The notes beneath the pieces were generated by a model. It ran no database searches. It was not told the DNA's origin and saw only the letters and a list, made by a program, of their open reading frames with translations. 64,000 nt of DNA from a virus. A program made the translations under genes and the position numbers. Positions 1,458 to 64,000 of the stretch are shown in pieces (position 1 is the first letter of the stretch; every line of letters starts with the position of its first letter). The stretch lies in the UHGV virus genome UHGV-0049167; one strand, given 5' to 3'.

Positions 1458-1459
1458 GG

Positions 1460-22009: not shown

Positions 22010-22372
22010 ATGACAAAAGAACAGATTGAAAAGGCGGCAACAGAAAGCTGTGTTATTGACAACAGCATCTTCAATCCAAAATACGTGCCGTATTATGAAC
22101 ATGGGTTTATAGATGGTGCCAACTGGCGCATCAACGCCGTGTGGCACAAGCCGTCGGCCTATGGCGATGAACTGACAAGGAACGTTGAGGTTATAGCAAA
22201 AACTAAAAGAGGCTATCGCTTTGGGATATTCGACATATTAGGCTGTTTCCACGAATATATAGCGTTTGTAAGCACATCAAATCTTGAATATGCGCTTTCC
22301 GATGTATTGGAATACGCGTATTTGGCTGATTTATTACCCGAAGGAAAGGAGGAAGAAGATGGAAGTCATTAA
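22010..22372 (+). CDS. hypothetical protein
   Basis: 120-aa ORF. Confidence 0.45.
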   Translation: MTKEQIEKAATESCVIDNSIFNPKYVPYYEHGFIDGANWRINAVWHKPSAYGDELTRNVEVIAKTKRGYRFGIFDILGCFHEYIAFVSTSNLEYALSDVLEYAYLADLLPEGKEEEDGSH

Positions 22373-22619
22373 GGTTACCAAAAGAACATACAGAGTGCTA
22401 CATGCTGTTGATAAGCCATTTTTGAAATTCGGACAGTTTCGCAGGACGAGAGAAAGTATAGGTCTTCCTGTTCAGAGGCGTTGTTTTAATTGCAACCGTA
22501 AGTTCAAGGATGACGATGATGTCTATTTAGTCATGCTAAAAGGAACTCTCAACAGATTGTTTTGTAAAAGCTGCAATGACAAGGCTTTGAATGATTTGAA
22601 GAAAGGAGGTCTGCAATGA
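22359..22619 (+). CDS. small Cys-containing protein
   Basis: Internal ATG preceded by AAGGAGG; CFNCNRKF...CKSC. Confidence 0.4.
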   Translation: MEVIKVTKRTYRVLHAVDKPFLKFGQFRRTRESIGLPVQRRCFNCNRKFKDDDDVYLVMLKGTLNRLFCKSCNDKALNDLKKGGLQ

Positions 22620-28096: not shown

Positions 28097-28145
28097 AAGA
28101 CATTGCTTTTATAGTTCTTTTTTTAACAGACGGTGTGCCCTGCTG

Positions 28146-28739
28146 TTATTCTGCTTTCTTTTCTCCTGTCTCTTTCTTTTTCAGGCGGACAACAATCTCC
28201 TGCGTGTCTGTATTGGCAACCGGTACATTCACACCGTCTTCCATATAGGAAGTCCATTGAACCCCATCGTCATACAAGACAATTCTCGGGTTTACGAGCT
28301 GCCCGAAACCGTCCTTTGTATATCCGAAAATCAATATCGGCTCTTCCTTGCCTTCATCGCCTTGGAAAAGCGGTAATTGGTATTGGTTGACAATCGAATC
28401 TGAAAGTATTGTCGGAATGTAAGACGGCTTGTCATTCTTGTTCAATTTCTTGATGAGCATGAGCACACCGTTCCATCTGAATATTATCCTTCCGTATTTG
28501 CCTTTGTTCCAGTTCTCGGGAAATGTGAGAATGAAACTCTCTGTTATTTTTGCGTTAAGCAAAGGACCTACAAGCCTTGTCCTTGCTTCAGGTATGGTCA
28601 TATTTACTTCTTCATTGTAATTTGCCAAACCTGCGTAATACGCCTTGAAGATGTCCTCATAACAATCTTTTAGCAGTTCCAACGCTTCTTTTTTCGTGAT
28701 GCGTTTTCGTTTCTTAAAATTATTATTTATATTTGCCAT
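28146..28739 (-). CDS. hypothetical protein, first gene of HTH-ImmA cassette
   Basis: Internal ATG start MANINNNFKKRKR; 197 aa; no motif recognised. Confidence 0.5.
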   Translation of the reverse strand: MANINNNFKKRKRITKKEALELLKDCYEDIFKAYYAGLANYNEEVNMTIPEARTRLVGPLLNAKITESFILTFPENWNKGKYGRIIFRWNGVLMLIKKLNKNDKPSYIPTILSDSIVNQYQLPLFQGDEGKEEPILIFGYTKDGFGQLVNPRIVLYDDGVQWTSYMEDGVNVPVANTDTQEIVVRLKKKETGEKKAE

Positions 28740-28903
28740 ATAATTTAAATTTAAGACGGGCACACCGTCTGTAATTTCAGCCCTTATTGCCGTAAGGGCT
28801 TCTTATATGGTGCAAAGATATATAATTTCCCCAAATAATTGTATATAATTTTTCGAAAATATTGTATATTTAACGGCAACCCACAATGTCAAAGAACGCC
28901 TTT

Positions 28904-35572: not shown

Positions 35573-38500
35573 TCATAAATATATGTTTCCGTTCGTGTCC
35601 GTGTCATCATCGTCAATGCGATTAATCTGTATCATCTGCACCCTGTCATAATTCATGTATACGGCTGTTGTCGTTATCATGCTGCCGTAGTATACGGTGC
35701 CGCTTCCCGGTTGTACGATTCCGATGTTCGAGAATCTGTATACATTGCGCGAGCACCATTGTCTGGAGAAATCCACCTTTTCCGCATAGTCATCCTCATA
35801 TCGCGTATAGTCCATTGGCGGTGTGTCCATAGGCGAGCCTATCATGAACGATTCCGGATTGTCCTGCGCCCACATTCCTGTGACAGCCTGTGCCGTGGTC
35901 ACATTACCCTGCTCCATGAACCATCTGCCGTTCGCGGCTCTTGCAATCTCCGGAGTGGAGGCGTAGTCACCGCTGAGATATGTGTCGTTTACGCGCCCTG
36001 CAAGATACATGTACAAAGGTGTTTTCGTGTACACATGACCATATTGGAATATGGTGTTCATTATCTGTTTGTTGCCAACGATGTCGCCTACGGTGGAGAA
36101 TGTGGCCCCTGTCAGCTGCAGGCGTCCGTATTTGCTGCTGGTCTCCCACCGTTCTTCCGAGACATCCTTGCCGGACAGTCCCCACGGTCCGAGGTCATAA
36201 AGGAACGTACCGTCATTGTCATAATAGGACAGTACCATGTATGAGCCGTTATATCCCATTTTGATGTTGGTCACACCGTTAGGGTTCTTTACCTCAATCA
36301 GTCCTCCCTTTATCTCCACATGCCCCTGTCCTTCGTCCATCGTGCGGAGCATCACACCTGTAAGGGTGCCCGCCTCGTCGATTGTGGTGACTGTCTCGCC
36401 GGAGTTGTTCTGTATCTCGAAGTTGTCGGCAGTGACCTTTATGCGCTTGTGTTCAATGTCTATCCCTGTCGCCTGCAGCTCGTCGCGCGTGATTGTCTCC
36501 GAACGCCAGTCGGTCGCCTCGCTGCCTTTCTCCAGCTTCACTCCGCATATCCAGACCTCTCCCTGTGCAGAACTGTCCGGCATGAGCCGTGCCGCTATCA
36601 GGCTCTTCCCTCCGCTTACGTCATTGCGAGTGCTCCATGTCACCTGATAACGGTTCCATCCGCTTTCAAGCGTGAACTGCACGAATCCGTCTGTCACACC
36701 TGTCTGGTTCTTCGTCCCCGGACTTGTGACCCAGTCGGTGCAGTTCGGATAGAAGTACGAGCCGATGCTGCCTGTGCCGCGCGCCCAGAATGAGAGCGTA
36801 TACTGTACGCCCGGCTCGGGCACCACGTTGCGCCATGTGATGACGTCCTTGTATGATGTCCCGGCTTCGTTCACACCGTGTGCCACGCTTATTTTTTCTC
36901 CGTAAGGTGTCGTGTATGCTCCTGCCTCTACGGTATCCTGTACGGTGCATTGGCTGAAGTCCGATGTTCCTGGAAGAAGATTCGGTCTTTTAAGCCTGTC
37001 CTCCGCGCTGAGTCCCCAGTCTGTCGCGTCCGCACCTGTCTCTATCTTGGGACGCGACACGGACGAGTATCCTGATGATATGCCCTGTATATACAGGTTA
37101 CACTGCTCTACCGACGCCACAGCCTTGTCCTGTATCCTGTGTGTGGAGCTTATGCGTCCCTCGAACGTGTCCGTGGATGTTATCTGCCTCCATGTCCCGA
37201 GATACTGCGTACTGCCGTCGGCATACCGTATCATGGGCTCCATGCCGATACGTCTGTTGCCTGATGCTGCCGGAACCGCAGATACGGTCTTGACAAGACA
37301 TGATACGGTTATTGTCTTTCCGCGCAGGCTTGACACATCCCCGATTGTGTAGACCTTGTTCCCGTTCCCTGTCAGGAATATGTCAGGAGTGGTCACCATG
37401 TTTCCGTCCTTTGCCCCAAGATAGCCGACTTTAAGGCTTATGCTGTCCGTCTCAGCCTTAATCTGCGATGAGAGTGCCATGGACGATACAGTGAAGGACA
37501 GGCGGCAGCTCACACTGCGGGTCTCCCCGCCCAGCGTTGCCTGTGCCGTAATCTGTACCCATCCCGCTCCGTATGGCACCGAACCTCCCCAGTCTGCCGT
37601 ATATGTCCCTATTGCGGTTATTGTAACCTGTGCCCCGTTGCGTGACGCAAGACAGTGCATAGGCTCTATGGCGGTAATTGTGACAGTCATCTCGCGCGTG
37701 CCGAGCCATGCGCGCAGACGTGATGTCGCATCCTGCATGCTCACCACACCGTCACTGTCAGCCTCCAATGTTATGGCGGCAGGGTCAAGTGCCCATGAGA
37801 AGCCGTCCTGCCCGTCCGTGCCGGGTTCACCGTCACTTCCGTCCGCTCCGTCCTCACCGCGTATCCGTGTCCACTTATATGAGGTAACGCTTGTCGGGTC
37901 ATATGAGTTGAAGTCTACGCATTGCCCGAGCCACGCGCCCGGTGTCTCACCGTTGTTTGCTGTGAACGTCTTTCCCCCGTCGTCGGAATATTTGATGTGA
38001 AGGTAGCTTGTCTTTCCGTCCGTACCGTTGGTTCCCGGTATTCCCTGCTCCCCATCATACCCTTGGAAGCGTGACCACGTGTAGTCCGAAGGGTCGTCGC
38101 TGTCTGCCTCCGTGAAGTCAACGTATGTGCCGATGTAGAGGTTGGGAACTTCTGACATTGGAGTCCCGTTGGAGTTTGCCGAGTATTTAACATGGAAATA
38201 TGTCGTACGACCGTCCTCTCCTGCGGGTCCCGGAACGCCCTGCTCCCCCTTGTCTCCTTTTTCTCCGGTATCACCCTTTATCTTTGACCATTTATAATCG
38301 GACGGTGTTCCGCTGTCTGTAGGATTCGTGTCTGTAAGGACTCCAATCCAGTCACCGCTGTCCTCTCCGTTGTTTCCGGTAAAGGTGACGCCTCCGTCGT
38401 TAGAGTATTTGATATGGAGATAATATGTCGTGCCGTCAGTCCCATTCACGCCCGGCAAGCCCTGTTCTCCCTGTATGCCTTCAAATCTTGACCAAGTGTA

Positions 38501-41500
38501 GTCAGATGCATCAGTACTGTCTGTTTCTGTAAAATCGACGTAAGTACCTATGTATTTGTCAGGCGTCTCGGTCATGGGCGTACCGCTCGCGTTCGCAGAA
38601 TACTTTATGTGGAAGTAGCTTGTACGTCCGTCCGCACCGGGTGTTCCGGGTATGCCTTGCTCGCCTTGCGGTCCTTGTAATCCTTGAAGCCCCTGCTCGC
38701 CTCTATCACCTTTGTCTCCTTTGTCGCCCTTTATCTTCAACCAAGTGTATTCTGACGAGTCTGTGCTGTCGTCAGCGTTGGTGTCTGTCATGACGCCAAT
38801 CCACGCGCCCGGTGTCTCACCGTTGTTTGCTGTGAACGTCTTTCCCCCATCATCGGAGTATTTGATGTGAAGATAATATGTAAGCCCGTCCACACCGTTG
38901 GTTCCCGGTATTCCCTGCTCCCCATCATACCCTTGGAAGCGTGACCACGTGTAGTCCGAAGGGTCGTCGCTGTCTGCCTCCGTGAAGTCAACGTATGTGC
39001 CGATGTAGAGGTTGGGTGTCTCGGTCATGGGATTTCCGTTCTCGTTTGAAGAATATTTCACATGGAAGTATGTGGTCTTTCCGTCATGACCGGGTGCCCC
39101 GTCTTTACCGGCTACACCGGGAATACCCTGCTCTCCTTGCGGACCCTGCGGTCCCTGTATGTTTCCGGCATTCACCCACTTGTCACCGTCCCACACCCAT
39201 AAGTCTCCGTCTATGAGCCATGCGTCACCGACCGCGTTGCCGTCCTGCGGGAGTTCGGAAGAGTCATTCTTCGAACCTTTCAGATTGAATGAAGTCCCGT
39301 CCTCTCCACGGAATTTGCTCCATGTATAGTCGGAAGGATTGTCGCTTTCCTGTGCGCTCTCTTTGTTTACGGCTATGCCTATATATTTTGTCGTGTCTGA
39401 AGGGGTCTGATACATAGGCTCACCGTCCGGACTGTCAGAGTAGGCAATCCATGTATAGAGAGTCTCACCGTCCTCGCCCTTTGCTCCCGGCACTCCGTCC
39501 TCGCCTTTTATCTCTGACCAGGTATAGTCCGATGGATTGTCGCTTTCCTGTGCGGTATTCTTGTTATATGCGAATCCAATGTATTTCTTTCCGGAAGGGT
39601 CGTTGGATATGCCTCCTCCTTCAGCGGTGTCGGAATATCTTATCCATGTGTAAAGTGTCTTCCCGTCCTCACCGGACGGTCCTGGTACACCCTGTGGTCC
39701 CATGTCACCTTTCTCACCCTGCTGTCCGTCCATACCTCTGAAACGTGCCCATGTATAATCAGAGGGGACATCGCTCGCTGTAGGGTTAAAATCCACGCGT
39801 GTACCGATAAATACATCCGGAGTCTCACTCATGGGCACACCGTCAGGATTCGGTGAATATCTTATGTGAAAATATGTGGTTTTCCCGTCTGCTCCGTCTT
39901 CTCCAGCCGGACCCTGTATTTTTCCTGCGTTTGCCCATGCGCTGCCGTCCCATACCCACAGATAGCCGTTCACGAGATACGCGTCTCCTGTGCTGTTCCC
40001 TGTTGGCGGCAGCATGCTCTCGTCATCAACGCTTCCCTTCACAGTGAATGACGTGCCGTCCTTTCCGTCAGTACCTTTAATCCTTGACCATGCATAGTCG
40101 CTGTAGACGAGAGCCACGTCGCTCTCCGTGCGGTCTGTGCATATGCCGAGCATGAGCCAGTCTTTTGCCGTGCTCTGGGATTTGTCCTTTGTCCAGTCGT
40201 CCGGACCGTTTCCCCATGCAAGGTGCGTGTAGCTGACAAGACCGGAAGTGTCCACATCCAGCTCGCCTCTTATCTTATTGCCGTTAGCCGCGAACCATGT
40301 CGTGCGGTACTGGCTTAGAGAAAAACTTGTGATTCCGTTGTATTGCGCGAATGACGGACTCTCCAGCTCGGTATCCGGAGTGGAGTGGGCGGCTATTATT
40401 ATCGCATGGCTGCGCGCTGTGTCGTCACCACGGTGTCCGCACAGACAAACGCTGTCACCCTCTGCAGGCTCAAGGCTGTCAGCCGCGCACGTGGCTTCAG
40501 ACACTTCAATCCAATGGCACTTTCTGTCCTCACCGTCAATGTTCCGTGTTCCGCTCCCTGTTGCCGTGACAAGTCTCCACCATAGTCTGTTTCCTGCATC
40601 ATATGATGTCCCCTCGGCAAGATTGGATGTCATTGCCAGAGCCTGGTCTCCGACCTTCCACATGTTCTGCACGGCTCTGCCGTCGCTGTCCTCCGCCAGC
40701 CACCACAGACGCCATGCTCCGCTTATTCTTTCGACAGAGCGTACCGTGCAGTTAGCAGCGGACAGTATCAGTTGACCTCCGACGCTGTTCAGCTCATCTA
40801 TGACAAGCTCGAAGAAATGTGCCCTTCCTGTCACGGTCAGCGTTTTCATTGTGGCTTCGTCGGCAAGAAGTTTCTTCAGCCGTGCGGTACCGTCCGCATC
40901 TATGCCGTAGTCTCCGTCTCCCACAAGCAGCCCTTTGAGGAATGTTATAATATCCAAGGCTGTGTCCGGACTGTCTTTCCGCAGAAAATACTTCGCGCAT
41001 TGTGCTAAAATGTCACCACGCATGCCATAAGTCAGGGATGTAAGTATCTCTGTTTTTATGGAATCGAGCTGTGCTCTGAATGAGGATTGAGACACGGTCA
41101 GGGTGTCTGTTAAATCCACACTTATTTCATAAAGTATGCTATCATCGGCTTTACAAGTATAGTTGCTGACATACAGAAGATGCTCTTCTTGATTATATCT
41201 TACTGTCAGACGTGTATTTTCATTCAGCAATGAGGTGAAGTCCTCATTTAATGCCAGATATACACGGGAAAATTTTATTGAATATGTGAATTTCTCATCA
41301 TTATTCCCTTTCATGTAAGCAATAAGAGCCGCATCCAGTCTTTTTTCCGCTTCCCGTATGTAGGATTCAGGAAGAGAAATGCCAGTTATGACAAATGTAT
41401 CGCCTATTGACGGACGATATCCTTGTGCCGCGTTCGGCATAATGACACCAAAGGTATCTGTTTCTTTTTTTACGGCTATCCATACTTCATATTCGCTGGT

Positions 41501-43735
41501 GTCCTGCTGGCGTGAAACGTAACTGTTTGTATCACGTGAAGGCAGGATATAGTCTCCTTCATATTTGTCCGCATTAGAACTGTTGACCTTGCGAAGATTG
41601 CCTTGTGCGTCTGTCATGACAGGGTTATAGAATTTGTATCTGTCACCATCGGCATACTTGTCCACCCCGATAACGAAACGGCATGCGGCGCAGTTGCCGC
41701 TTGTCATCTCTATTGCAGCCTCTTCGCTTTCTAATGCATGCTCAAAAATATTGAAGCCTCCACTTCCGTTATATACATGTAGTTTTATATAGAAATATGA
41801 ATGAAGGTATTCGTCACTATTGTCTTTAAGGACATCGCTATCATCCGTATCAAACCGTATGTCAGCTATTTCACCTATCAACTGACCTTGAATGTTTTTT
41901 ATCCCTTTTATTGTCGGGACTATATCTTCAAATGAAGTCGTCCCTTCGTGAGGGTTCAATTCATTGTATACATTATTAAATATATATTTATTTCCTGATT
42001 CATCTTCATCTTCATATGTATTATTGACTGCATTATAGTAGCGTTCCGCTCCTCCACTTTCTCTGTATATAGAGGGCATCAGGCTCTGAGAGGGAGTTAT
42101 CCACTCTCTTCCTGTAATATTAATTATGGCTGGTGTGTGGTCACCGCTGTCCTCCACAACATTCCATTCACCGCCTGAGAAATCCAAATGCGAAGGCGCA
42201 TACGGAACATTGTTTACATCAGACAGCGTTATTCCGCTTTTACTGTATGCGATGTTATTCCCATCTCCATATGAGAAATAATACAGTTCTCCGCCACTTT
42301 TCTGATATGTTATGGATGATTTTGCATTTAACGTCATTCCTATAGTCGCCTGGCTGTTGGTCGCTCCGCTTCCTGAGAAAATGGCGTAAGCAGTCCCTTT
42401 AATCACAACTTGAAACCATCCGCTGGCATGGAAGGTATATTCATAGTCCTTCCAACCTGACAATATTTCTATTTTATCACTTATAGAATCATCCTCATTC
42501 GGATTATAGTCGTCTCTCCATATTCCAATACTTATTGTATTTTTAAGGTTTCTGTCCCCTCCGTAGCTATTTGACGATACTTTCTGCCATGAAAGTGATA
42601 AATCTGCGTCACCGCTGATTTTTCTGAAAGTCAAAAAGGATTCATTGAAAACAAACCGAAGTTTGTCTCCCTCTTGTGCATTTATTTTCAGTCTGAAAGA
42701 TATCGTGATATAGGTGTTGCCTATACCTGTTCCAAAATAGAATATGTCTGTAGCCTCCCTGTTGCTTATTACTGTGGGGCTATATGCATTATAAAAAGGA
42801 GCAGTCTGTCCGATGTCTGCGCTGGCATCCGTGTTTGACACCTTTTTAAGTCTATATGCGGTATATGGGGAACTGTTGTATTTTAGTATCTCATTTAAGG
42901 AGATATCTGCTACTTCAGATTTGTCAATGTTCTCTGTGTCGAAACTCGCGTTGCCCTCCGCACTCATGTTTGGATAGTACCATGGCAAATTTTTTGTGCC
43001 TCCAGTACCGGTTATCCTCGTGATAATCCTGTAATTGGCATTTGTTTTCTGAATAGACAACAGAGCATTGTCATTACCATATTCTATCGGAGTTGTTATT
43101 ACATTCTCTGTATATCCTACGTGGCAGGTCTTCCCTGTCCAATAATAGGCGAGTCCATATACATTATATATATCCTGTAGAGCCTCTGCAATGAACTTGT
43201 CTTCTATACTGACATCTTTGCCCTCAGAAGTTATGCCTTCGTCAATGACAATATGGAAACCTTCTTGTTTGTCTTTATTATATAGACCGCTGTAAATCAA
43301 TGAATCGTTGAGCCGGGCAACAAACTCGTGTACATCACCGAAGAAATGTACTTTAGATGTGTTGCTTCTGTATCGGTCTTTATATTGGGCTTCAGTATCT
43401 TCTGTTACCACATCAAGGAAATACACGTTTTCAAGTATCTCCCTTTCACTTACAAATGTGACCTCATGTTTGTATGTTATCTCAGAATTGTCTTTGGATG
43501 ATGACGGCTTTTGCCTTATATAATACTTCTCTCCGCCAAATTCTATATACTCGTTTAATGTCCATTCATTGTCAAGACATCTTGGGAATTTCAATGTAGC
43601 CGTGAAGGTCGGTGCGCCGCCCATGCGTTGTGCGTCATAGGTGTATGTACCTATGACCGCTTTTTCTGTAGACGAAGGAAAATATTCTTTCACTCCGTTT
43701 GTGTCACGCATTATGTATAAGCTCTTCTTCTCCAT
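35573..43735 (-). CDS. giant 2720-aa structural protein with collagen-like Gly-X-Y tracts and tandem ~85-140-aa modules; putative tail fibre / host-recognition protein
   Basis: Uninterrupted 8163-nt ORF; GPQGVPGPSGEDG, GDKGDKGDRGEQGLQGLQGPQGEQGIPG; repeated YTWSRFQGYDGEQGIPG...YYLHIKYSDDGGKTFT modules. Confidence 0.8.
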   Translation of the reverse strand: MEKKSLYIMRDTNGVKEYFPSSTEKAVIGTYTYDAQRMGGAPTFTATLKFPRCLDNEWTLNEYIEFGGEKYYIRQKPSSSKDNSEITYKHEVTFVSEREILENVYFLDVVTEDTEAQYKDRYRSNTSKVHFFGDVHEFVARLNDSLIYSGLYNKDKQEGFHIVIDEGITSEGKDVSIEDKFIAEALQDIYNVYGLAYYWTGKTCHVGYTENVITTPIEYGNDNALLSIQKTNANYRIITRITGTGGTKNLPWYYPNMSAEGNASFDTENIDKSEVADISLNEILKYNSSPYTAYRLKKVSNTDASADIGQTAPFYNAYSPTVISNREATDIFYFGTGIGNTYITISFRLKINAQEGDKLRFVFNESFLTFRKISGDADLSLSWQKVSSNSYGGDRNLKNTISIGIWRDDYNPNEDDSISDKIEILSGWKDYEYTFHASGWFQVVIKGTAYAIFSGSGATNSQATIGMTLNAKSSITYQKSGGELYYFSYGDGNNIAYSKSGITLSDVNNVPYAPSHLDFSGGEWNVVEDSGDHTPAIINITGREWITPSQSLMPSIYRESGGAERYYNAVNNTYEDEDESGNKYIFNNVYNELNPHEGTTSFEDIVPTIKGIKNIQGQLIGEIADIRFDTDDSDVLKDNSDEYLHSYFYIKLHVYNGSGGFNIFEHALESEEAAIEMTSGNCAACRFVIGVDKYADGDRYKFYNPVMTDAQGNLRKVNSSNADKYEGDYILPSRDTNSYVSRQQDTSEYEVWIAVKKETDTFGVIMPNAAQGYRPSIGDTFVITGISLPESYIREAEKRLDAALIAYMKGNNDEKFTYSIKFSRVYLALNEDFTSLLNENTRLTVRYNQEEHLLYVSNYTCKADDSILYEISVDLTDTLTVSQSSFRAQLDSIKTEILTSLTYGMRGDILAQCAKYFLRKDSPDTALDIITFLKGLLVGDGDYGIDADGTARLKKLLADEATMKTLTVTGRAHFFELVIDELNSVGGQLILSAANCTVRSVERISGAWRLWWLAEDSDGRAVQNMWKVGDQALAMTSNLAEGTSYDAGNRLWWRLVTATGSGTRNIDGEDRKCHWIEVSEATCAADSLEPAEGDSVCLCGHRGDDTARSHAIIIAAHSTPDTELESPSFAQYNGITSFSLSQYRTTWFAANGNKIRGELDVDTSGLVSYTHLAWGNGPDDWTKDKSQSTAKDWLMLGICTDRTESDVALVYSDYAWSRIKGTDGKDGTSFTVKGSVDDESMLPPTGNSTGDAYLVNGYLWVWDGSAWANAGKIQGPAGEDGADGKTTYFHIRYSPNPDGVPMSETPDVFIGTRVDFNPTASDVPSDYTWARFRGMDGQQGEKGDMGPQGVPGPSGEDGKTLYTWIRYSDTAEGGGISNDPSGKKYIGFAYNKNTAQESDNPSDYTWSEIKGEDGVPGAKGEDGETLYTWIAYSDSPDGEPMYQTPSDTTKYIGIAVNKESAQESDNPSDYTWSKFRGEDGTSFNLKGSKNDSSELPQDGNAVGDAWLIDGDLWVWDGDKWVNAGNIQGPQGPQGEQGIPGVAGKDGAPGHDGKTTYFHVKYSSNENGNPMTETPNLYIGTYVDFTEADSDDPSDYTWSRFQGYDGEQGIPGTNGVDGLTYYLHIKYSDDGGKTFTANNGETPGAWIGVMTDTNADDSTDSSEYTWLKIKGDKGDKGDRGEQGLQGLQGPQGEQGIPGTPGADGRTSYFHIKYSANASGTPMTETPDKYIGTYVDFTETDSTDASDYTWSRFEGIQGEQGLPGVNGTDGTTYYLHIKYSNDGGVTFTGNNGEDSGDWIGVLTDTNPTDSGTPSDYKWSKIKGDTGEKGDKGEQGVPGPAGEDGRTTYFHVKYSANSNGTPMSEVPNLYIGTYVDFTEADSDDPSDYTWSRFQGYDGEQGIPGTNGTDGKTSYLHIKYSDDGGKTFTANNGETPGAWLGQCVDFNSYDPTSVTSYKWTRIRGEDGADGSDGEPGTDGQDGFSWALDPAAITLEADSDGVVSMQDATSRLRAWLGTREMTVTITAIEPMHCLASRNGAQVTITAIGTYTADWGGSVPYGAGWVQITAQATLGGETRSVSCRLSFTVSSMALSSQIKAETDSISLKVGYLGAKDGNMVTTPDIFLTGNGNKVYTIGDVSSLRGKTITVSCLVKTVSAVPAASGNRRIGMEPMIRYADGSTQYLGTWRQITSTDTFEGRISSTHRIQDKAVASVEQCNLYIQGISSGYSSVSRPKIETGADATDWGLSAEDRLKRPNLLPGTSDFSQCTVQDTVEAGAYTTPYGEKISVAHGVNEAGTSYKDVITWRNVVPEPGVQYTLSFWARGTGSIGSYFYPNCTDWVTSPGTKNQTGVTDGFVQFTLESGWNRYQVTWSTRNDVSGGKSLIAARLMPDSSAQGEVWICGVKLEKGSEATDWRSETITRDELQATGIDIEHKRIKVTADNFEIQNNSGETVTTIDEAGTLTGVMLRTMDEGQGHVEIKGGLIEVKNPNGVTNIKMGYNGSYMVLSYYDNDGTFLYDLGPWGLSGKDVSEERWETSSKYGRLQLTGATFSTVGDIVGNKQIMNTIFQYGHVYTKTPLYMYLAGRVNDTYLSGDYASTPEIARAANGRWFMEQGNVTTAQAVTGMWAQDNPESFMIGSPMDTPPMDYTRYEDDYAEKVDFSRQWCSRNVYRFSNIGIVQPGSGTVYYGSMITTTAVYMNYDRVQMIQINRIDDDDTDTNGNIYL
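37931..38146. repeat. ~216-bp direct repeat, copy 1 (inside giant gene)
   Basis: Near-identical to 38801-39016; last ~125 bp identical by eye. Confidence 0.85.
38801..39016. repeat. ~216-bp direct repeat, copy 2 (870 bp downstream of copy 1)
   Basis: Near-identical to 37931-38146. Confidence 0.85.
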
Positions 43736-45219
43736 CAGGCTACATTGTTTATAGGTGCATTTTTGTTTGTGCCATCCGTAGTCTTGTTCCGTTTTGACTC
43801 TTCAGCCAATCTCATTTCCTCATCAGGAGTGGAAACGGTATTTTTTTCAATTCCCGTCTTAGTGGAAATGATACCGGATCCTTTCAGAGTGCAAAGCATC
43901 TGGTTATAAGTATTCTCATCGAACGGCTGCCACATTTTAAACTTGCAGGATATTTTCATTCTGGCAAATTCTGTTACCGCATTCGGATTCTCACCTTTAT
44001 TTACAAGTTCTTTAGCCAGTCCTTCCTTGAAAAGTCTCGCATGTTTATCCGCAAAATTCTGCCATTCTATTACGTTTTGAGCCGCACCTTCTATATCGAA
44101 AGAACGTGTTATTTGCATTGCCAGACCGGAGATGTCCCCGCTTGACTTAACATCCTTGGGAAGGATGAATGTTACGGATGCTCCTATCTGAATCTTGTCA
44201 AGAATGTCTTGCATCGCATTAAGCATTCCTTCATTTGTAGGTGGAGAGAGGAACTTTGCGTCTCCCTTGCCGTCAATCGATGCGTCTTGAAGCATAATTG
44301 AACCTGCTATTTGACGGGCGTCTTCCTTAAAACGCCCTTTGAGATATAAAATCCCCCATCCATGACGCTTTTCTATTACAGTAAAGATGTTGTAAATAAT
44401 CTCAAATGTTTCTATCAGATTCTGGACGTTGTTCCATGCGACATCACCGCGCTTTGTTATAAGCGGTATCTCACTGAAGCCGTGAGCCTCTTGGCTCTCT
44501 ATATGCCAACCGTCAACGTTCGTCAGACGGTACAGGTTCGTGTCGTCGTATGCGTCTATGTGCTGCACGTTGTCACCGTCGGCATAATATACACATTCCA
44601 TCACCCGGTCACCGTTGTCGTCGTTGTGTGATATGATGACATATCCGTCCTCGTATGATATTATCCGCCCCCTGATTTCACCTTTATAGTTGAAATACAT
44701 CAGAAGTCCGATGTCGCCAAGTCCCATCTGCCCGTATACAGCCTTTGTCCCCAATCCGTCCTGATTGCGCTCTGTCCAATGCCATTTCAGGTCAGCAAAG
44801 TTTTTTTTCAATGTTTCGGAAGGATTGCTGTCATGCAATGTAAATACTCTGGGATTGCCGCATAATGCAAGTGTCTTTTTTTGTCTTATTCTTTCTTGAA
44901 AGGCAAGAGCGGTACGCTTGAACTTTATTTCATAGAATGCTCCGTCATTGGCTTTGACACAAATTGACGGCATATTTTCGTCAAAAAGTACCTCATGGCT
45001 GTCCGGGTCAAGTTCTTTCATGAACTTGTCCTGTGTGACAATGGTCTTCATTACGTTTGGAAGCACAGCCCGACGTAAGGCGGACACATTCTCTTCCGCC
45101 CCACAGTTGTTGTCGTACACGGAATATGTACTGCTGCCTCTTGTAAACGGCTTCTTCATCAGCATTTCTTCCGGATGAGACAACAGCCATTCTACAATTT
45201 CCTTACGTGTTCTGTTCAT
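43735..45219 (-). CDS. putative portal protein
   Basis: 494 aa between terminase genes and structural genes; by size and position only. Confidence 0.45.
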   Translation of the reverse strand: MNRTRKEIVEWLLSHPEEMLMKKPFTRGSSTYSVYDNNCGAEENVSALRRAVLPNVMKTIVTQDKFMKELDPDSHEVLFDENMPSICVKANDGAFYEIKFKRTALAFQERIRQKKTLALCGNPRVFTLHDSNPSETLKKNFADLKWHWTERNQDGLGTKAVYGQMGLGDIGLLMYFNYKGEIRGRIISYEDGYVIISHNDDNGDRVMECVYYADGDNVQHIDAYDDTNLYRLTNVDGWHIESQEAHGFSEIPLITKRGDVAWNNVQNLIETFEIIYNIFTVIEKRHGWGILYLKGRFKEDARQIAGSIMLQDASIDGKGDAKFLSPPTNEGMLNAMQDILDKIQIGASVTFILPKDVKSSGDISGLAMQITRSFDIEGAAQNVIEWQNFADKHARLFKEGLAKELVNKGENPNAVTEFARMKISCKFKMWQPFDENTYNQMLCTLKGSGIISTKTGIEKNTVSTPDEEMRLAEESKRNKTTDGTNKNAPINNVA

Positions 45220-45752
45220 ACTGCGCTTCCTTTGTCTTTAAGTCCGTAATACTTCATGCACGCTTCTTTTGTCGGCATATAGGTACACTCTCTGTTGGTG
45301 TGTGGACATATAATGTCATGTTTCTGAGGCACGACTATTATGCGTTTTTGCGTCTGGCTGGCTTCCATCTCAAACTTATCGTTTAGTTTCACGCGGATGT
45401 CTGCCTCCATTTTCACAGCGTCCTTCGCGTCAATCTTCTTACTTTCGGCAAGAACCTTTATCTCTTTCAGCAAACGTATAAGTTCCGTCTTGTTCTGCTC
45501 ACGTGTTATAAGTTCTTCGTTTACCGAGCCTATGCCGAAAGGTTCAAGCAAATCCCGTAATTTTATCATCCTCGGAGCACGATAGTGTGCTTCAGCATCC
45601 GTTGCAGTCCTGCCGTACGCCATTTTGTACGCCACAGATTTATCGGCGAACGTATCGCACAGCACAGCAAAGGCTATGTCTTTATCACTCACTGTAGCCC
45701 ACTCCTGCCGTGCGCTTTTGAGTATAACCTTTATGTCGTCTTTCTTTATCAT
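45216..45752 (-). CDS. hypothetical protein, possibly terminase small subunit-like
   Basis: 178 aa; SVAYKMAYGRTATDAEA loosely resembles TerS helix; unusual position after TerL. Confidence 0.4.
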   Translation of the reverse strand: MIKKDDIKVILKSARQEWATVSDKDIAFAVLCDTFADKSVAYKMAYGRTATDAEAHYRAPRMIKLRDLLEPFGIGSVNEELITREQNKTELIRLLKEIKVLAESKKIDAKDAVKMEADIRVKLNDKFEMEASQTQKRIIVVPQKHDIICPHTNRECTYMPTKEACMKYYGLKDKGSAV

Positions 45753-45767
45753 GAAGTTTTGTATATT

Positions 45768-47390
45768 TTAACTCCACAATGTGGAGTCATATATGCTACG
45801 TCTGACGTATGTTTTACTCTCAACTTCTTCATCCCTCCCTCTCGAGAAACCTTCTTCTATCTCTGTCCCGTATTCGAGATTTACACATGGATACATCCTT
45901 ATAGCACAGGGGTCCAACAAGTCCATTGAACGTCCGTACCCAAGCCGTAAGTTCATCTGTTTCTTGTTCATAAGTCTTTTCTTTCCTGAAGGCATGTCGA
46001 TAAATCTTACGACAGCGCACTCATCCTGAAACTCATTCTCTACTGTAACTCTGAACTTCAGGTTCTGATGTGTGTATGTGGATTGCGCTACGTTATCTGC
46101 AAAAGTGATTTGCCCTCTGTTTATCATGTTTACAAGGCGGAGATAACACAGGTCTTTCATCGTCGCTGCCGTCAGGTAGTATAACCCCATTGGCTTTGTT
46201 GATGAGAGGTAAGCTATTGCGTCCGGTATGTAGTCATTGAAATACCGTCCTGCGGTGCCGTCAAATATTATGTGGCTATCCGGAGTCTCGTTTTTATCCG
46301 CGAAAATTTTTACTCTTTGCGCGTTCTCTTTAGGAGTTGTGTGGCTTACTATTAGTATGTCGGTGACATGGAAACCGTTCCATGCCAATGCCACCATGTT
46401 GTCTGTACCATAATCAGCCAAGTCCACAGTTACCCACCTGTCTCCGTTAACGGCAGGGGCTGCCATAAAACAGTCTCTTGCCTTGTCGCTTGGTATCGGT
46501 ATGTCTACGTCCTCGTCGGGGTCAGCGTTGAAGTTCCCAAGCATTGACAGTGCCATATTGCCACCTGAAGCGGCAACGCTGCCTATATAGCCAGGGTTGC
46601 GTTCCATCAAGTCTTTATTTTGTGACACCATGCCCTGATAGAACACGAACGATTTTATCAGGTGTTCATAAGAAAAATTGCCGTTTAACCTTTTTAATTT
46701 GTTTTCTATGTCTATGCGGCATTTCCGATAGACTTCCTCTTTCGTGTCACCCCAGACGACATCCTTAACCGTAGCCCCGTTTATGTAAAAATATCTTACA
46801 ACACCGTCACGTTCGGGATTTACATAGCCGTCTAATCCTACATACCAGTCAAGGAATGTTCTCGACCAATGGCTGCGCTTCGGGTTGAACGTGGCAAAGA
46901 ATTTCCCGGTAAACGTCTTGCTCTGCCCACGGTTACGGGTCATCACGTATGTGAACGCCTCCCATGACATCTCGGTCAACTCGTCTATGGCTATCGCGTC
47001 ATACTCCCATCCTTTTGCACGCTCTCGCAACTTATCCATATTGGAGTCGTCGATGTACGTCAAATCGCAGAACGTGCCGATGGGGAAGCTGATGCGCGGG
47101 CTGTCCGACTCGCGTACCTTTATATAGTCAGTACCGAACACTTGCTTGAATTTCTCCACGAAACCGCCGCCCGCCTTTTGGTTGCCAAGGCTTCGGCGGC
47201 TTATCAGGCATCGGAAATCAGGGTCGGTCATCAGTGGCTCGGCAAAGGCAAGAAGCAAGCCCAGCGACTTGCCGCCACCCGCTGCACCGCCGCCGAACAC
47301 CACGTCTACATTGGTGCTGGCGAACATATGCTGGAATGGAGAATTCGGTTTCCAAGTAATGTCCTTTATGTTACTTTGACTGTCTGACAT
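45768..47390 (-). CDS. terminase large subunit
   Basis: Walker A VVFGGGAAGGGKS, Walker B DAIAIDELTE; 540 aa. Confidence 0.85.
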   Translation of the reverse strand: MSDSQSNIKDITWKPNSPFQHMFASTNVDVVFGGGAAGGGKSLGLLLAFAEPLMTDPDFRCLISRRSLGNQKAGGGFVEKFKQVFGTDYIKVRESDSPRISFPIGTFCDLTYIDDSNMDKLRERAKGWEYDAIAIDELTEMSWEAFTYVMTRNRGQSKTFTGKFFATFNPKRSHWSRTFLDWYVGLDGYVNPERDGVVRYFYINGATVKDVVWGDTKEEVYRKCRIDIENKLKRLNGNFSYEHLIKSFVFYQGMVSQNKDLMERNPGYIGSVAASGGNMALSMLGNFNADPDEDVDIPIPSDKARDCFMAAPAVNGDRWVTVDLADYGTDNMVALAWNGFHVTDILIVSHTTPKENAQRVKIFADKNETPDSHIIFDGTAGRYFNDYIPDAIAYLSSTKPMGLYYLTAATMKDLCYLRLVNMINRGQITFADNVAQSTYTHQNLKFRVTVENEFQDECAVVRFIDMPSGKKRLMNKKQMNLRLGYGRSMDLLDPCAIRMYPCVNLEYGTEIEEGFSRGRDEEVESKTYVRRSIYDSTLWS

Positions 47391-47441
47391 ATTGCAAATA
47401 TACTTTATGTCTATTTAGATAATGCTTTGATTTTCAACAAT

Positions 47442-47459
47442 ATTGGACATATGTCCAAT
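47442..47459. promoter_or_regulatory. 18-bp perfect palindrome ATTGGACATATGTCCAAT in divergent region between terminase and head operons; candidate operator
   Basis: Read directly; ~0.2 such palindromes expected by chance in 64 kb. Confidence 0.4.
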
Positions 47460-47537
47460 TATAAGCTTTAATGATTTCATCTAAACGACTAACAATCATA
47501 AATTTGCATCATGAGTTAACATTAAAACACTATATAT

Positions 47538-48185
47538 ATGAAGTTTACGAGCGAACAGCTAACAGAAGCACTGAAAGCTAAACTCACGCCCAACGGCAAA
47601 AAACTTGCGATGAGCGAGAGGACACTGAAAGCCAATGTGGAAAGGCTCTACAAAAGGCTGGAGAAAAGTGATGACGAAACCGAACTTGATGATGTTGTCA
47701 AAGAGTATCTTCCTGATTTCGAAGAGATTGACGGCAACGTCCGCAAGGATAATTCCGATTTCGTGAACACTTGGAAAAAGGAACATCCCGACACAAAACA
47801 AGATGACAAACGCGATGACAAACGCGATGACAAGCAAGGCGACCGGCTCGACACGCTTCTGCAAGAAATTAAGGAACTGAAGGCTGAGCGTGAGAAAGAC
47901 AAGGCTGAGAAGGTCGCCAAGGAGAAACGTGCGGAATTGTTGTCCATGTTCAAGGAAAAGGGCATTGAGGATGAGGATTGGGCAGCCTCATATCTAAAGA
48001 AACTCAACGTCAACGCTGATACAGACACCGAAGCTGAGACAAACGATGCTCTCACGCTTTACAATAAGTCGAAATCGCACGTTGACACCAGTGGAACACC
48101 GCGACGAGCCGGAGGCGGCGCGACAGATCCGAAAGATGAGTTTGCCGATGTGGTTGACATTCTCAAAAGTGAAAGACGGATGTAA
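47538..48185 (+). CDS. scaffolding-like charged coiled-coil protein
   Basis: 215 aa, highly charged, DDKRDDKRDDKQ repeat; first gene of head operon. Confidence 0.45.
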   Translation: MKFTSEQLTEALKAKLTPNGKKLAMSERTLKANVERLYKRLEKSDDETELDDVVKEYLPDFEEIDGNVRKDNSDFVNTWKKEHPDTKQDDKRDDKRDDKQGDRLDTLLQEIKELKAEREKDKAEKVAKEKRAELLSMFKEKGIEDEDWAASYLKKLNVNADTDTEAETNDALTLYNKSKSHVDTSGTPRRAGGGATDPKDEFADVVDILKSERRM

Positions 48186-48988: not shown

Positions 48989-50167
48989 ATGAAATTTGAC
49001 TTTAATAGTTCAAGATACGCCAAATTCTTTTCCGACAAGAGTAACAGGCGTTTCTTGCAGACATTCATTGATACGGAAGGTATCCTTTATACAAATTATG
49101 GTTGGTATCTGACGCAGGGACGACGAGCCTCTGCACCGACGCCTACTGATAACAGTGGTGTAGCCACGTTCACGGTCAAAGCCCGTAAGGCTGAAGCCGC
49201 TCCGCTTATGGACATGCGTGCTCCACTTGGTGACAGCAACCAGATGGATAAGGAAGGTCTGAGTTTCTACAGCGCGACCATTCCCGATTTCATCGCCCCA
49301 GGTTTTGTGGAGACTGCCATGGAACGTGAGTACCGCATCCGTCAGTTTGAACTGTTCGGTAACGATGCAGACATCGTAGCACAGTGGGTACATGAAGTAC
49401 AGATGCAGAAAGATTCTGCTGATGCCACTATGAATTATATGACCGCGCAACTTATGACCACAGGAAAGATAGATTACAGTACTATCGGACGTGGCATTAA
49501 AGCTCCGTTACATAAGGCAGACATCCCTGCGGAGAATTTTGTCAAGGCGGGTGAGAAAATATGGACTGCGGCTGACTGTAAGCTGCTTGAGCAAATGAAG
49601 AACATAGAGGACGCATACCGTGAGAAGCGCAACTATACCGGTGCGCTCGTTTGGCAGGTACCGCGTAAGATGTACTTTGAGATTATTCTCGAAAATGCAC
49701 AGGTTAAAGAACTTATCGCAGACTATAAAAAGAATCCACTGGCTTATCAGGCTACTACTGAAGGTCAGTCGTTCACAGAAGTCGCTTTCCGGCAGGCTGT
49801 AATAGACTATCAGGGTGTTTCGCCTATTGAGGTCGTTACTGAGAAAGAGCGTAACAAAACTCACACATCAGACACTTTCATCCATGGATGGAAAGAGAAC
49901 GTGGCGGTGCTTCGTCCAGCCGGAGACGCTGTCGAGTTTGAGTACACTGAAAATCTTGACCAGATAATGTTCAAGAAATATGGCTCCAAGGCTATAACCA
50001 AGGTGTTTGCCCAGACAAACAACGGGTTGGCTACCCTTGTGAATACGACACTTAACAATGGACAATATCAGGAATGGCATACAGACCTGATGATGTCAGC
50101 ATGTCCGGCTCTCATCGAGTTCCCTGACCATCTGATTGTAGACACATCAACAGCCGACACGGAATAA
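48989..50167 (+). CDS. putative major capsid protein
   Basis: 392 aa, size and position typical of HK97-fold capsid protein. Confidence 0.5.
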   Translation: MKFDFNSSRYAKFFSDKSNRRFLQTFIDTEGILYTNYGWYLTQGRRASAPTPTDNSGVATFTVKARKAEAAPLMDMRAPLGDSNQMDKEGLSFYSATIPDFIAPGFVETAMEREYRIRQFELFGNDADIVAQWVHEVQMQKDSADATMNYMTAQLMTTGKIDYSTIGRGIKAPLHKADIPAENFVKAGEKIWTAADCKLLEQMKNIEDAYREKRNYTGALVWQVPRKMYFEIILENAQVKELIADYKKNPLAYQATTEGQSFTEVAFRQAVIDYQGVSPIEVVTEKERNKTHTSDTFIHGWKENVAVLRPAGDAVEFEYTENLDQIMFKKYGSKAITKVFAQTNNGLATLVNTTLNNGQYQEWHTDLMMSACPALIEFPDHLIVDTSTADTE

Positions 50168-61859: not shown

Positions 61860-62282
61860 ATGATTATGCAAAGACTTGACACATATGATGAGATGCCGGA
61901 AGGAATGAGGCGATATCTATCTCAGTACGGATGGCATTTTTCAAAAAAACTCTGTGAATGTGCCATAAAAGACATGCGCACACTCAACAAGGTCACAGGC
62001 AAGAAAGAGCCGATGGAGATTATTTCCAAGGAAACAGTGGAAGATCTGTTGAAAAAATATAACTTGAATGTTGATAATTGTAAGGGTTATGATGCCGTCT
62101 ACGTATGGCATATGGCAAAGGCGGATTATTTTAAAAGCTCTGTTGTTGACGAGGCTCATCTGGCGTTGTTCGTGAAAGATTATCTGGACGATACCGATGG
62201 TTACGACGGCGTGGCTCTTACACGCTATCTTGCTGACTGTATCGGAAACGGGACTCCTGTCGAATGGGAAGATGTATTATGA
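61860..62282 (+). CDS. hypothetical protein
   Basis: 140-aa ORF. Confidence 0.4.
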   Translation: MIMQRLDTYDEMPEGMRRYLSQYGWHFSKKLCECAIKDMRTLNKVTGKKEPMEIISKETVEDLLKKYNLNVDNCKGYDAVYVWHMAKADYFKSSVVDEAHLALFVKDYLDDTDGYDGVALTRYLADCIGNGTPVEWEDVL

Positions 62283-62707
62283 TTGTACAGGATTTCGGTT
62301 TGCCAGACTATGACTGGAGGATTAGGGTATACTATGCTGTGACGACTTATTGGACAGATGTCATAGTTAATGACCTCATGCGTATCGGTTGTGGGGGATG
62401 TGAGTTGCGTGATGCTTATATGAGTCTCAGACGCGGAGAACTTGATACCGAACTTACATATTCCAACCGAAGCACGCATGAGAGCATCATGGTTATCGGT
62501 CTAACATCATCAGCCGCGCAGTTCCAGAACTCACTCGACCATGAGAAAGGGCATCTCATCAAACATATATCTGTCGCCTTCGGTCTTGACCCTTATGGTG
62601 AAGAGCAACAGTATTTAAGCGGGGAAATAGGGCAGAGGATGTTTCCCGTTGCCCGGAAGTTCCTTTGTGAGCATTGCAGGAGAAAACTTTATGAAGAAAG
62701 ATATTGA
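62279..62707 (+). CDS. hypothetical protein with HExxH-like motif (DHEKGHLIKH)
   Basis: Internal ATG in ATGA overlap with previous gene. Confidence 0.4.
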   Translation: MIVQDFGLPDYDWRIRVYYAVTTYWTDVIVNDLMRIGCGGCELRDAYMSLRRGELDTELTYSNRSTHESIMVIGLTSSAAQFQNSLDHEKGHLIKHISVAFGLDPYGEEQQYLSGEIGQRMFPVARKFLCEHCRRKLYEERY

Positions 62708-62811: not shown

Positions 62812-63336
62812 TTACAATCCCTTTCTCCTCCCATACTCACATATCAGCAAGGCGTCGCACTTGTTGTCGTCATCGTCCTTGCATCTCTCTGTCCTACGGA
62901 AGTCTATGCGGGGGAAAAGACGCTTTCCCGCGTTCAGCGAGGTTTTTTTTGTATCAATCCTCCTGAGGGTCTTCCCGTTTGTACATTTCGACTTATACTC
63001 CTTATCTTGATTAATCCATATCTCACCCTGCCATATCTTAGGCTGAACAAGATGGTATGGAATACCCAATGCTGTAAGAATCCCTATAAGTATTCCATTG
63101 ATTTTTCCAAATGCGAATGTAGATTTTGCAGACGAGCCTAATATTGCATGTACTTCTTCCATACAGCATACGACGTTACAGTCGCTTGCAAAAATTATAC
63201 CTTTAAGAAAGTCCACAATCTTTGCATATCCGGCATCCTTTATCGAAAGGAAGTCTTTCATCCCGTTCGCATACATTACGGCTATGAACCCTGCACTTCC
63301 AGGGTCTATCCCTATATAAACTCTTCCGCTATCCAT
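62812..63336 (-). CDS. RuvC-like Holliday junction resolvase
   Basis: N-terminal VYIGIDPGSAGFIAV resembles RuvC motif; 174 aa. Confidence 0.6.
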   Translation of the reverse strand: MDSGRVYIGIDPGSAGFIAVMYANGMKDFLSIKDAGYAKIVDFLKGIIFASDCNVVCCMEEVHAILGSSAKSTFAFGKINGILIGILTALGIPYHLVQPKIWQGEIWINQDKEYKSKCTNGKTLRRIDTKKTSLNAGKRLFPRIDFRRTERCKDDDDNKCDALLICEYGRRKGL

Positions 63337-63365
63337 TCGTCAGTATTTTGTGTTGTATAGTGTTT

Positions 63366-63830
63366 TTACAGTGTATTCTGCTCATTGACCTCATTTTTCT
63401 TATTATTCCCGTCAGCCTTGCCTTTATCGACCTTAATCTCAACAAACTCTCCTTTTCCGAGCCTCGCCCTGTTTATGCAATCGCCAATCCATTGCAACAG
63501 GTAAGACAAATGTTCGTTGTGCCCTCCATATTCTCGTGCCAATGGCAATACGTTCATAAAAGCGTCAAATACGTGTGAAGCCTCATGGCAGATATTACCC
63601 ATTGTCATGTTTGTCTTGCCTTTGAAAACCACCAGTTCGCCATACTTGCCGTCCGCTTTCGAACATACTTCTGTAAAAGTCGTTGCAAAACAGTCCTTGT
63701 CATCCCATTTAATCTCATCTCCGTCATGCTCCGTGAAGCAACTCTGTATCTCCGCCCCTGTGGCCTGTGGCATCACCCACAGCTTTCTCGGATATATCAC
63801 CGGGTCGTATTCATAATAGCCTTTCTTCAT
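63366..63830 (-). CDS. hypothetical protein
   Basis: Internal ATG start MKKGYYEY (track start is GTG). Confidence 0.45.
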   Translation of the reverse strand: MKKGYYEYDPVIYPRKLWVMPQATGAEIQSCFTEHDGDEIKWDDKDCFATTFTEVCSKADGKYGELVVFKGKTNMTMGNICHEASHVFDAFMNVLPLAREYGGHNEHLSYLLQWIGDCINRARLGKGEFVEIKVDKGKADGNNKKNEVNEQNTL

Positions 63831-64000
63831 ACTTTTTCCTTTACACACCACTTAAATTTGTTCCATAATCCTTCTTTCATAAGCAATATCATTTGTTTGT
63901 CGTTTGTTTCCCTATATGATACATCGAACATACCTTGCATTGGTAAATCCCATACCCTTGCAGCCCCTTGGCCTCTATAAACGCCTCGGCCTCGTCCTTG
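63827..64000 (-). CDS. C-terminal fragment of a gene entering from beyond window end
   Basis: Minus-strand frame open from window edge to TGA at 63827-63829 in ATGA overlap with next gene. Confidence 0.25.
   Translation of the reverse strand, partial: QGRGRGVYRGQGAARVWDLPMQGMFDVSYRETNDKQMILLMKEGLWNKFKWCVKEKV

Follow-up and report, generated by a model that had tools for sequence, protein, structure and literature searches.

A palindromic candidate regulator-binding site midway between the predicted divergent late promoters of a family of temperate Bacteroidales phages

Between the divergently transcribed late operons of a phage from the human gut lies a perfect 18-bp palindrome, ATTGGACATATGTCCAAT (47442-47459, centre 47450.5), that occupies the exact midpoint between two predicted promoters and that, in related phages, retains its place and its symmetry while its sequence changes. 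The position of this dyad, its equal distance from both promoters and the co-variation of its arms make it probable, though well short of certain, that a dimeric regulator encoded by the phage binds here, at its only site, and plausibly activates both late promoters. The DNA analysed here, hereafter the window, corresponds to positions 1-64,000 of a 74,848-bp contig from a human-gut metagenome, with which it shares its coordinates. An earlier, sequence-only reading of the window had claimed both the perfect palindrome and its location between the terminase and head/tail operons; the former is confirmed by the sequence, in which the symmetry stops at 18 bp (T at 47441 and T at 47460 are unpaired), and the latter by the annotation of the flanking genes.

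The leftward operon, on the minus strand, begins with the gene for the large terminase (45768-47390; 540 aa; Pfam Terminase_6N; PHROG terminase large subunit, E=5e-50), which is followed by those for a conserved 178-aa protein, the portal (43735-45219; SPP1_portal) and a 2720-aa protein. The 178-aa protein, encoded between terminase and portal (45216-45752), is probably the small terminase and is predicted to combine a helical domain at the N-terminus with a helical hairpin and a C-terminus that contains Cys. The first rightward late gene, on the plus strand, encodes a 215-aa protein (47538-48185) that we describe as scaffold-like on the strength of its position and acidic repeats; it gave no family match, and in relatives its gene likewise stands divergent to that of the terminase. 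It is followed by genes for a 250-aa protein and the major head protein (48989-50167; PHROG 29), and the operon continues onward to a 1915-aa tape measure. The scaffold-like gene also contains a tandem repeat (47800-47842), two copies of GATGACAAACGC plus a diverged one, that encodes an acidic/basic KRDD run, and the length of the acidic tract varies between relatives. The 2720-aa ORF directly after the portal (35573-43735, minus strand) shows only faint collagen and BppU-like matches, and its counterparts in relatives range from about 1300 to 2700 aa and are sometimes split; in two of these phages (L114, L118), a reverse transcriptase (RVT_1) is encoded a few genes downstream of this type of ORF, which suggests a diversity-generating retroelement.

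Near-identical copies of the phage are found inside scaffolds of 94-361 kb, and relatives carry integrases at the operon end, so the phage is temperate. No isolated phage was found to be similar at the DNA level. The closest isolates, phages of Parabacteroides and Bacteroides with a terminase identity of 25-28%, the -7 promoter motif described below and a match to a Muribaculaceae genome in the terminase search together point to a Bacteroidales host.

The two operons are separated by 147 bp (47391-47537), in which the longest ORF does not exceed 37 aa and an Rfam search gave no match at E<=1. A motif scan of this divergent late control region yields two -7 boxes, each within a block that is conserved in relatives: TATATTTG followed by C on the minus strand (47395-47402), predicted to belong to the terminase/portal promoter, and TAAATTTG followed by C on the plus strand (47499-47506), predicted to belong to the scaffold/capsid/tail promoter. 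The consensus of the -7 box read by the primary sigma factor of Bacteroidota, sigma-ABfr, is TAnnTTTG (PMC7366714). The centres of the two boxes, at 47398.5 and 47502.5, are 104 bp apart, and each lies 52.0 bp from the centre of the dyad; the rightward box is centred 31 nt upstream of the ATG at 47538, and the final G of the leftward box is 4 nt from the terminase ATG (47388-47402, minus strand). When both promoters of 18 relatives were aligned on the -7 box, TAtTTTTGC was the sole conserved block besides the dyad position, the dyad occupied constant columns throughout, and no -33 element was conserved in either promoter set. A weak -33 element was considered as a sign of activator dependence, and this argument was dropped because the other predicted promoters of the phage also have no clear -33 element. 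The dyad begins some 45 bp upstream of either -7 box, clear of all core promoter elements, and the distance from its centre to the box centre is 52-53.5 bp, or five helical turns. If, as the name of the element suggests, transcription begins several bases past the box, its centre would be placed at about -61 relative to both start sites, an estimate inasmuch as the start sites are predicted from the motif.

With the box only 4 nt before the ATG, the terminase mRNA would be leaderless or nearly so. The same is predicted for the transcript of an XRE-type gene at the left end of the window (1041-1457), where the -7 box ends 2 nt before the ATG (1457-1467, minus strand). In the relatives, the distance from box to terminase ATG ranges from 5 to about 30 nt; in Bacteroides thetaiotaomicron, 5' UTRs shorter than 10 nt make up only about 3.7% (PMC7366714).

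The palindrome by itself is only mildly unusual. In 300 first-order Markov simulations of the window, perfect palindromes of at least 18 bp occurred on average 0.30 times per 64 kb, and 25% of the simulated windows contained at least one; the window has two palindromes with arms of at least 8 bp (1.1 expected) and six with arms of at least 7 bp (4.3 expected), both counts being close to expectation. The figure of about 0.2 per 64 kb in the sequence-only reading was thus roughly right, but its conclusion that such a palindrome is not expected by chance was too strong. The improbable feature is the position of the dyad: when the DNA between the boxes was shuffled, a comparable dyad fell within 1 bp of the midpoint in fewer than 1 of 2000 cases. 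We therefore reject a chance origin on the grounds of position and conservation across relatives, and not on the grounds of the palindrome itself.

The window dyad can be described as two 5-bp cores with a 6-bp spacer (TTGGA-N6-TCCAA) or, in a wider frame, as ATT-N12-AAT with a palindromic interior. The window contains no further copy of the 18-mer, even with 3 mismatches allowed, and a scan of the window and of contig positions 52.8-73.3 kb revealed nothing else above 13 of the 16 specified positions, nor did either region contain a second copy or a cluster of half-sites that could mark the regulator's own gene; the dyad is unique within the 73 kb of the genome examined. In IMG/VR, the sole carrier of the exact 18-mer is a contig that is 99% identical. 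A search for the motif elsewhere, which had been proposed as a check, thus turned up no second copy in this genome, while what recurs in relatives at the same spot is a symmetric site with a changed sequence.

Homologous regions were collected through terminase searches of IMG/VR, GTDB genomes and JGI metagenomes and, additionally, through the family of the 178-aa protein (242 homologues), exact-protein contig look-ups and an IMG/VR portal search, giving a comparison set of 69 distinct homologous intergenic regions with terminase identity of 42-99%. In 66 of these, the distance between the two -7 boxes is 104-107 bp, and in 56, the best dyad, with a score of at least 7, is centred no more than 1 bp from the midpoint. 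Three others (L110, L114, L206) have a weaker, slightly imperfect dyad at the midpoint, and about ten, mostly more distant relatives, have a weak midpoint dyad or none (L006, L010/12, L011, L013, L014, L045, L052, L061, L117). Among the 17 distinct sequences of the first set, 10 had a midpoint dyad with p<0.01 each by shuffling, and the combined Fisher p was about 4e-19, a value bounded by the number of shuffles.

Because many of the 69 sequences are close kin from one abundant clade and so are not independent samples, a fairer count is that of the distinct dyad sequences, of which there are 19. Beside the window dyad, these include TATTTATCActaTGATAAATA in the dominant clade, TATTGGATAGCTATCCAATA in L004, TATTCGCCAcaTGGCGAATA in L003, TATTTGATACGTGTCAAATA in L143-L146, ATCGTTTACcGTAAACGAT in L159, TTAATCCACgGTGGATTAA in L054/L057, AGTAATTGCAtagTGCAATTACT in L007/L008, TGTGATActaTATCACA in L058, TATTCGCCA in L051 and TATTTATCA in L154/L174.

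In several relatives (L009, L010, L012, L056, L057, L059, L060, L061), the terminase match starts only at residue 40-56 or so, roughly 1-1.3 kb downstream of the promoter region. The intervening DNA in L009, L010 and L012 resembles an insert of the intein/LAGLIDADG type, with motifs such as LMDTDGC, and in L014 an extra gene, apparently for an endonuclease, separates the promoter region from the terminase. The upstream control region has the same layout in these insert-bearing relatives.

The two arms of the dyad change together. Ten dyads can be placed in the common ATT-N12-AAT frame, and in these, 82 of the 90 arm positions are complementary, with at least two types of complementary pairs at five of the nine positions; when right arms were dealt to other phages in 10,000 permutations, the mean number of complementary positions was 64.7 and the maximum 80, so none reached the observed value. 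The outer ATT/AAT and position 8/11 are invariant in the ten same-frame relatives, except in the left arm of L002 and L114, and the variable positions, namely, 4-7 and 9, change along with their partners. In particular, between L051 and L154, phages with terminases that are 92% identical and with alignable flanks, CGC is replaced by TAT in one arm and GCG by ATA in the other, and L114 has CAC|GTG where the window has CAT|ATG, again a symmetric change. Conversely, L113, which has an 85% identical 178-aa protein, keeps all 18 bases of the dyad although its intergenic flanks have diverged, and a MAFFT alignment of eight intergenic sequences shows only three conserved islands, the two -7 boxes and the dyad. 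Mismatches confined to one arm are tolerated (L005, L110, L118, L206). To judge from these comparisons, the dyad is recognized by its sequence and not by shape alone, that sequence is under purifying selection within lineages, and the overall pattern is the one expected for homologous dimeric proteins with diverged recognition specificity.

Taken at face value, this arrangement would comprise two back-to-back late promoters, each with a -7 box (TAnnTTTG) for the primary sigma factor of the host, and one common dyad. The leftward promoter would drive the genes for the terminase, the probable small terminase, the portal, the 2720-aa protein and more, up to the -7 box at 28813, and the rightward one those for the scaffold, the capsid, the tape measure and the tail. 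A dimer bound at the dyad, outside the core promoter DNA covered by RNA polymerase, would most plausibly contact polymerase on either side and so turn on both promoters, in the manner of Ogr at the one site between pP and pO of phage P2 and of class I CRP-type activators at -61.5. The half-site sequences differ by phage lineage, and the regulator would have diverged alongside them. The dyad, its symmetry, exact centring and conservation and the co-variation of its arms are observed, whereas the start sites, the binding of a protein, the sign of the regulation and the phage origin of the regulator are what we infer here. We favour an activator over a repressor operator because the dyad lies upstream of the core promoter elements and overlaps none of them; activators that touch polymerase from upstream bind in such a place, while a repressor would more likely cover the -7 or -33 region. 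The proposal of the sequence-only reading, an operator for a dimeric regulator that controls both operons, is thus upheld by the position, the co-varying arms and the equidistance inasmuch as it posits a shared dimeric site, and appears less apt inasmuch as an operator implies repression.

Repression is nevertheless the best of the alternatives, if an unlikely one. The dyad would then be the operator of a dimeric repressor, acting in lysogeny or in timing, that silences both late promoters by blocking upstream contacts or by looping, and all the evidence that the dyad binds a protein applies to it equally; moreover, the phage is temperate and encodes HTH proteins of the XRE type. The location of the dyad speaks against such a role, given that it lies some 45 bp upstream and overlaps neither the -7 boxes nor the -33 region, as does its solitary nature: no auxiliary operators that could support cooperativity or looping accompany it, and no repressor gene adjoins it. 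Furthermore, late genes of temperate phages are usually silent for want of an activator rather than through direct repression.

Considerably less probable is that the dyad is the pac or cos site at which the adjacent terminase recognizes or cleaves DNA. The dyad is immediately upstream of the large terminase gene, the gene for the probable small terminase is 1.7 kb away, and some cos sites are partly symmetric. However, a packaging site needs neither exact centring between the boxes nor their fixed spacing of 104-107 bp, and no contig was found to end at the dyad. Packaging is further disfavoured in that dyad specificity does not follow the proteins encoded alongside: L051 (dyad class D) differs from L154/L174 (class B) in the dyad, yet the large terminases are 92% identical and the 178-aa proteins 85-87% identical; predicted-helix variation in the 178-aa protein is no greater between dyad classes than within them; and L004 has the window half-site but a very different N-terminal domain of this protein, a domain that differs widely among the members of class A. 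It should be kept in mind that the 178-aa protein is only the probable small terminase and that one of its residues, Q43 versus K, is specific to the odd class.

Of similarly low probability, in our view, is a site for a host factor, either an activator of the Crp/Fnr type or a LexA-like SOS repressor of Bacteroidetes, which would tie late expression to the physiology of the host. Some members of the dyad set do resemble known sites: TGTGATA-cta-TATCACA of L058 is similar to a CRP site (consensus TGTGA-N6-TCACA), and TTGATACGTGTCAA of L143 is similar to an FNR site (consensus TTGAT-N4-ATCAA). The GGA-N6-TCC of the window is close to the Bacteroidetes SOS box, GGA-N5-TCC (PMC8565304), but the spacing is N6 rather than N5, most of the relatives are without GGA/TCC, and the dyad is upstream of the core promoter, which an SOS operator ought to cover. 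The existence of 19 dyads, with a switch even between phages whose terminases are 92% identical, is hard to reconcile with conserved host factors.

The retention of symmetry while the sequence changes could also, in principle, reflect structure only, that is, a cruciform extruded under supercoiling or a replication or recombination site that is not recognized by its sequence, and negative supercoiling driven by transcription does accumulate between divergent promoters. We regard this as scarcely probable, considering that the hairpin has a short stem of 7 bp and little stability (-4.8 kcal/mol for each DNA strand), that within lineages the dyad sequence is kept while the flanks drift, that the classes hardly differ at the outer ATT/AAT and at position 8/11, and that one-arm mismatches are tolerated. 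Two further candidates are rejected: an attP core, because the site, with the whole intergenic region and both flanking operons, is intact inside prophages integrated in scaffolds of 94-361 kb, and an intrinsic terminator or RNA motif, given that the dyad has nothing terminator-like, has no Rfam match and lies upstream of both predicted promoters.

The search for the regulator itself relied on scans of about 65 window proteins against Pfam, PHROGs and NCBIfam, and on precomputed Pfam hits for about 10 kb beyond the window. Among the proteins scanned, there is no Ogr/Delta, Crp/Fnr or sigma-like protein, and the family scans of the window recovered two HTH proteins, both of the XRE type and both in other regulatory contexts. 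The first, encoded at 1041-1457, lies 46 kb from the dyad under a promoter of its own at the extreme left of the window and might be the lysogeny repressor, which is a guess on our part; the second, an XRE-M78 fusion (27041-28096), is part of another unit, headed by a -7 box at 28813. The candidates named in the sequence-only reading, XRE or small HTH proteins, thus find nothing that points to them, the XRE genes being located in separate promoter units. A HigBA pair, including a HigA-type HTH protein, is found beyond the window. Neither could any of the small zinc-ribbon proteins (20577-20801, 22359-22619, 18603-18803), the first two of which have the form CX2C-X22/23-CX2C, be linked to the dyad.

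Comparison across dyad classes also failed to single out a regulator. Five neighbours of the dyad (the large terminase, the 178-aa protein, the portal, the scaffold-like protein and the 250-aa protein) were rejected, as none of them clusters by dyad class. The neighbourhoods of the XRE-M78 fusion and of a PAPS reductase, both in the early region, are mosaic and show no link to dyad class; the PAPS-reductase contigs, bar the 99% identical one, are absent from the terminase matches. A 20-kb walk along the terminase-side operon of a class D contig, compared with class B contigs, met genes for tail and lysis, followed by integrases and cargo that varies, and yielded no class-specific regulator. 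A 129-aa protein with a C-terminal HTH (L283 14365-14754) occurs only on the class D contig and, having no counterpart in class B or in the window, is not the family-wide regulator.

Two of the regions covered in this search are of separate interest. The XRE-HTH/M78-peptidase fusion (351 aa) and an upstream 197-aa protein (27041-28813, minus strand), under the -7 box at 28813, recur as a pair at 86-93% identity on other IMG/VR contigs (L101-L103, L105), the flanks of which are dissimilar to those in the window, so that the two genes have the look of a mobile regulatory module. Next to the XRE gene at the left end, on its upstream side, CAAATATATTTG (1460-1471) consists of two overlapping, back-to-back -7 boxes and, 270 bp further, a 16-bp perfect palindrome, CGGCATTGCAATGCCG (1741-1756), falls inside a doubtful Cys/Arg-rich ORF (1705-2193); together, these elements may constitute a lysogeny switch region.

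The surroundings of the late region deserve a brief description as well. From 62812 to 64000 and beyond, genes on the minus strand run toward the end of the rightward operon. This block is non-structural and encodes a RuvC-like resolvase (62812-63336), a protein with an HExxH motif (63366-63830) and, at or past the window end, a zinc-ribbon protein of 70 aa whose gene spans that end, a protein with a Sequestin domain and what is probably a DNA methyltransferase; therefore, early-type operons abut the late region on both sides. Further to the right, at about 69.0-71.3 kb of the contig (L096 1988-4306), a stretch of 2.3 kb has no called gene. A long palindrome rich in AT, TTAACGCGTACTATATAAATATATTTATATATACGCGTTAA (L096 about 3859-3900), lies within it, along with several GC-rich hairpins that precede runs of T; this stretch, which adjoins the HigB/HigA-like pair, could be an origin, a cos region or a set of non-coding RNA genes. 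In relatives L283-L362, there is a cargo hotspot about 3.3-7 kb downstream of a conserved 97-aa gene and directly past the last gene of the terminase-side late operon, which encodes a 140-aa protein homologous to the product of 62264-62707 in the window. The cargo is unrelated from one phage to another and includes STAS-like pairs, Abi-like genes and tyrosine or serine recombinases. In IMG/VR, the ends of many contigs fall about 6.5-6.8 kb beyond the 97-aa gene, probably at the prophage boundary.

A single site shared by two divergent late promoters is not without parallel, and the closest case is the late promoter pair pP/pO of phage P2, known also from 186 and PSP3, with its Ogr/B/Delta activator site. 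The P2 RefSeq record shows one 'activator binding site; pO, pP promoters' at 3057-3087, with start sites at 3016 for the P operon (terminase, portal) and at 3127 for the O operon (scaffold, capsid); the site is thus midway between the pP and pO starts, at -55/-56 in both directions, within a gap of 173 bp (2994-3166). In the P2-like phage Smp131, one 18-bp TGT-N12-ACA site is likewise shared by both promoters, and the activator, Ogr, is a zinc-finger protein (PMC3931495). The window resembles these phages in that one dyad-type site lies midway between divergent late promoters, for which the start sites are predicted in the window, in that the large terminase and portal are transcribed leftward and the scaffold and major capsid rightward, and in that the site is of about 18 bp with an N12 core frame (ATT-N12-AAT in the window). 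The dimensions are comparable as well, with a site at -55/-56 and a gap of 173 bp in P2 and a predicted position of about -61 and a gap of 147 bp in the window.

The likeness has its limits. The P2-type consensus, TGT-N12-ACA, is absent from the window dyad, and there is no sequence similarity between the sites; unlike in the P2-type sites, the inner half-site in the window is fully palindromic and highly variable between relatives. The activators Ogr/B/Delta are C4 zinc fingers (CX2CX22CX4C); the proteins scanned gave no Pfam or NCBIfam match to this family, and the two small CX2C-X22/23-CX2C proteins mentioned above have no link to the site. Additionally, P2 has four such promoters, in contrast to the single occurrence of the site in the 73 kb examined here, and the P2 promoters are of the sigma-70 type, as opposed to the sigma-ABfr type of Bacteroidota.

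Two other classes of regulators provide partial parallels. Class I activators of the CRP/FNR type also bind a site of two-fold symmetry upstream of the core promoter, classically centred near -61.5, or further out at -71.5, -82.5 and so on, and the window dyad, at five turns from the -7 box, shares its helical face; however, -61 is an inferred position in the window, the half-sites are unlike those of any known member and vary between phages, and the scanned proteins include no Crp/Fnr protein with a cNMP-binding domain and a C-terminal HTH. The operators of CI and Cro in lambdoid phages are, similarly to the window dyad, palindromes of about 14-20 bp, in this case for HTH dimers, and lambdoid immunity is similar to the present family in that close relatives differ in specificity while the surrounding genes are similar. 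By contrast, lambdoid operators overlap early promoters, occur in arrays of two or three and adjoin the repressor gene, whereas the window site is single, lies upstream of late promoters and has the XRE genes 19-46 kb away.

Since P2 already works by a shared late-promoter site, no new principle is involved in the arrangement described here; it occurs in a phage group with uncharted late regulation and shows an unusual turnover of specificity. Temperate Bacteroidales phages are abundant in the human gut and, to our knowledge, nothing is established on the timing of their late genes. In this family, one site of 18-24 bp, found at a constant position in hundreds of metagenomic contigs, probably controls over 30 kb of genes for packaging, head, tail and lysis. 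The site makes the regulator findable, either by pull-down or through co-variation across specificity classes, and orthogonal site variants could serve as inducible, insulated bidirectional promoters for the engineering of Bacteroides.

Conceivably, although we consider this a doubtful extension, each genome carries one pair of regulator and site, and such pairs diversify into many specificity classes, even where terminases are 92% identical, in the manner of immunity groups, which would insulate co-resident prophages and satellites from one another. The satellite P4 is known to pirate the late activators of P2. If the extension is valid, the turnover of classes would prevent co-resident prophages or satellites from cross-activating the morphogenesis genes of others, and the regulator would represent a so far unannotated protein family. 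The site described here offers a test of such insulation of prophages by specificity turnover.
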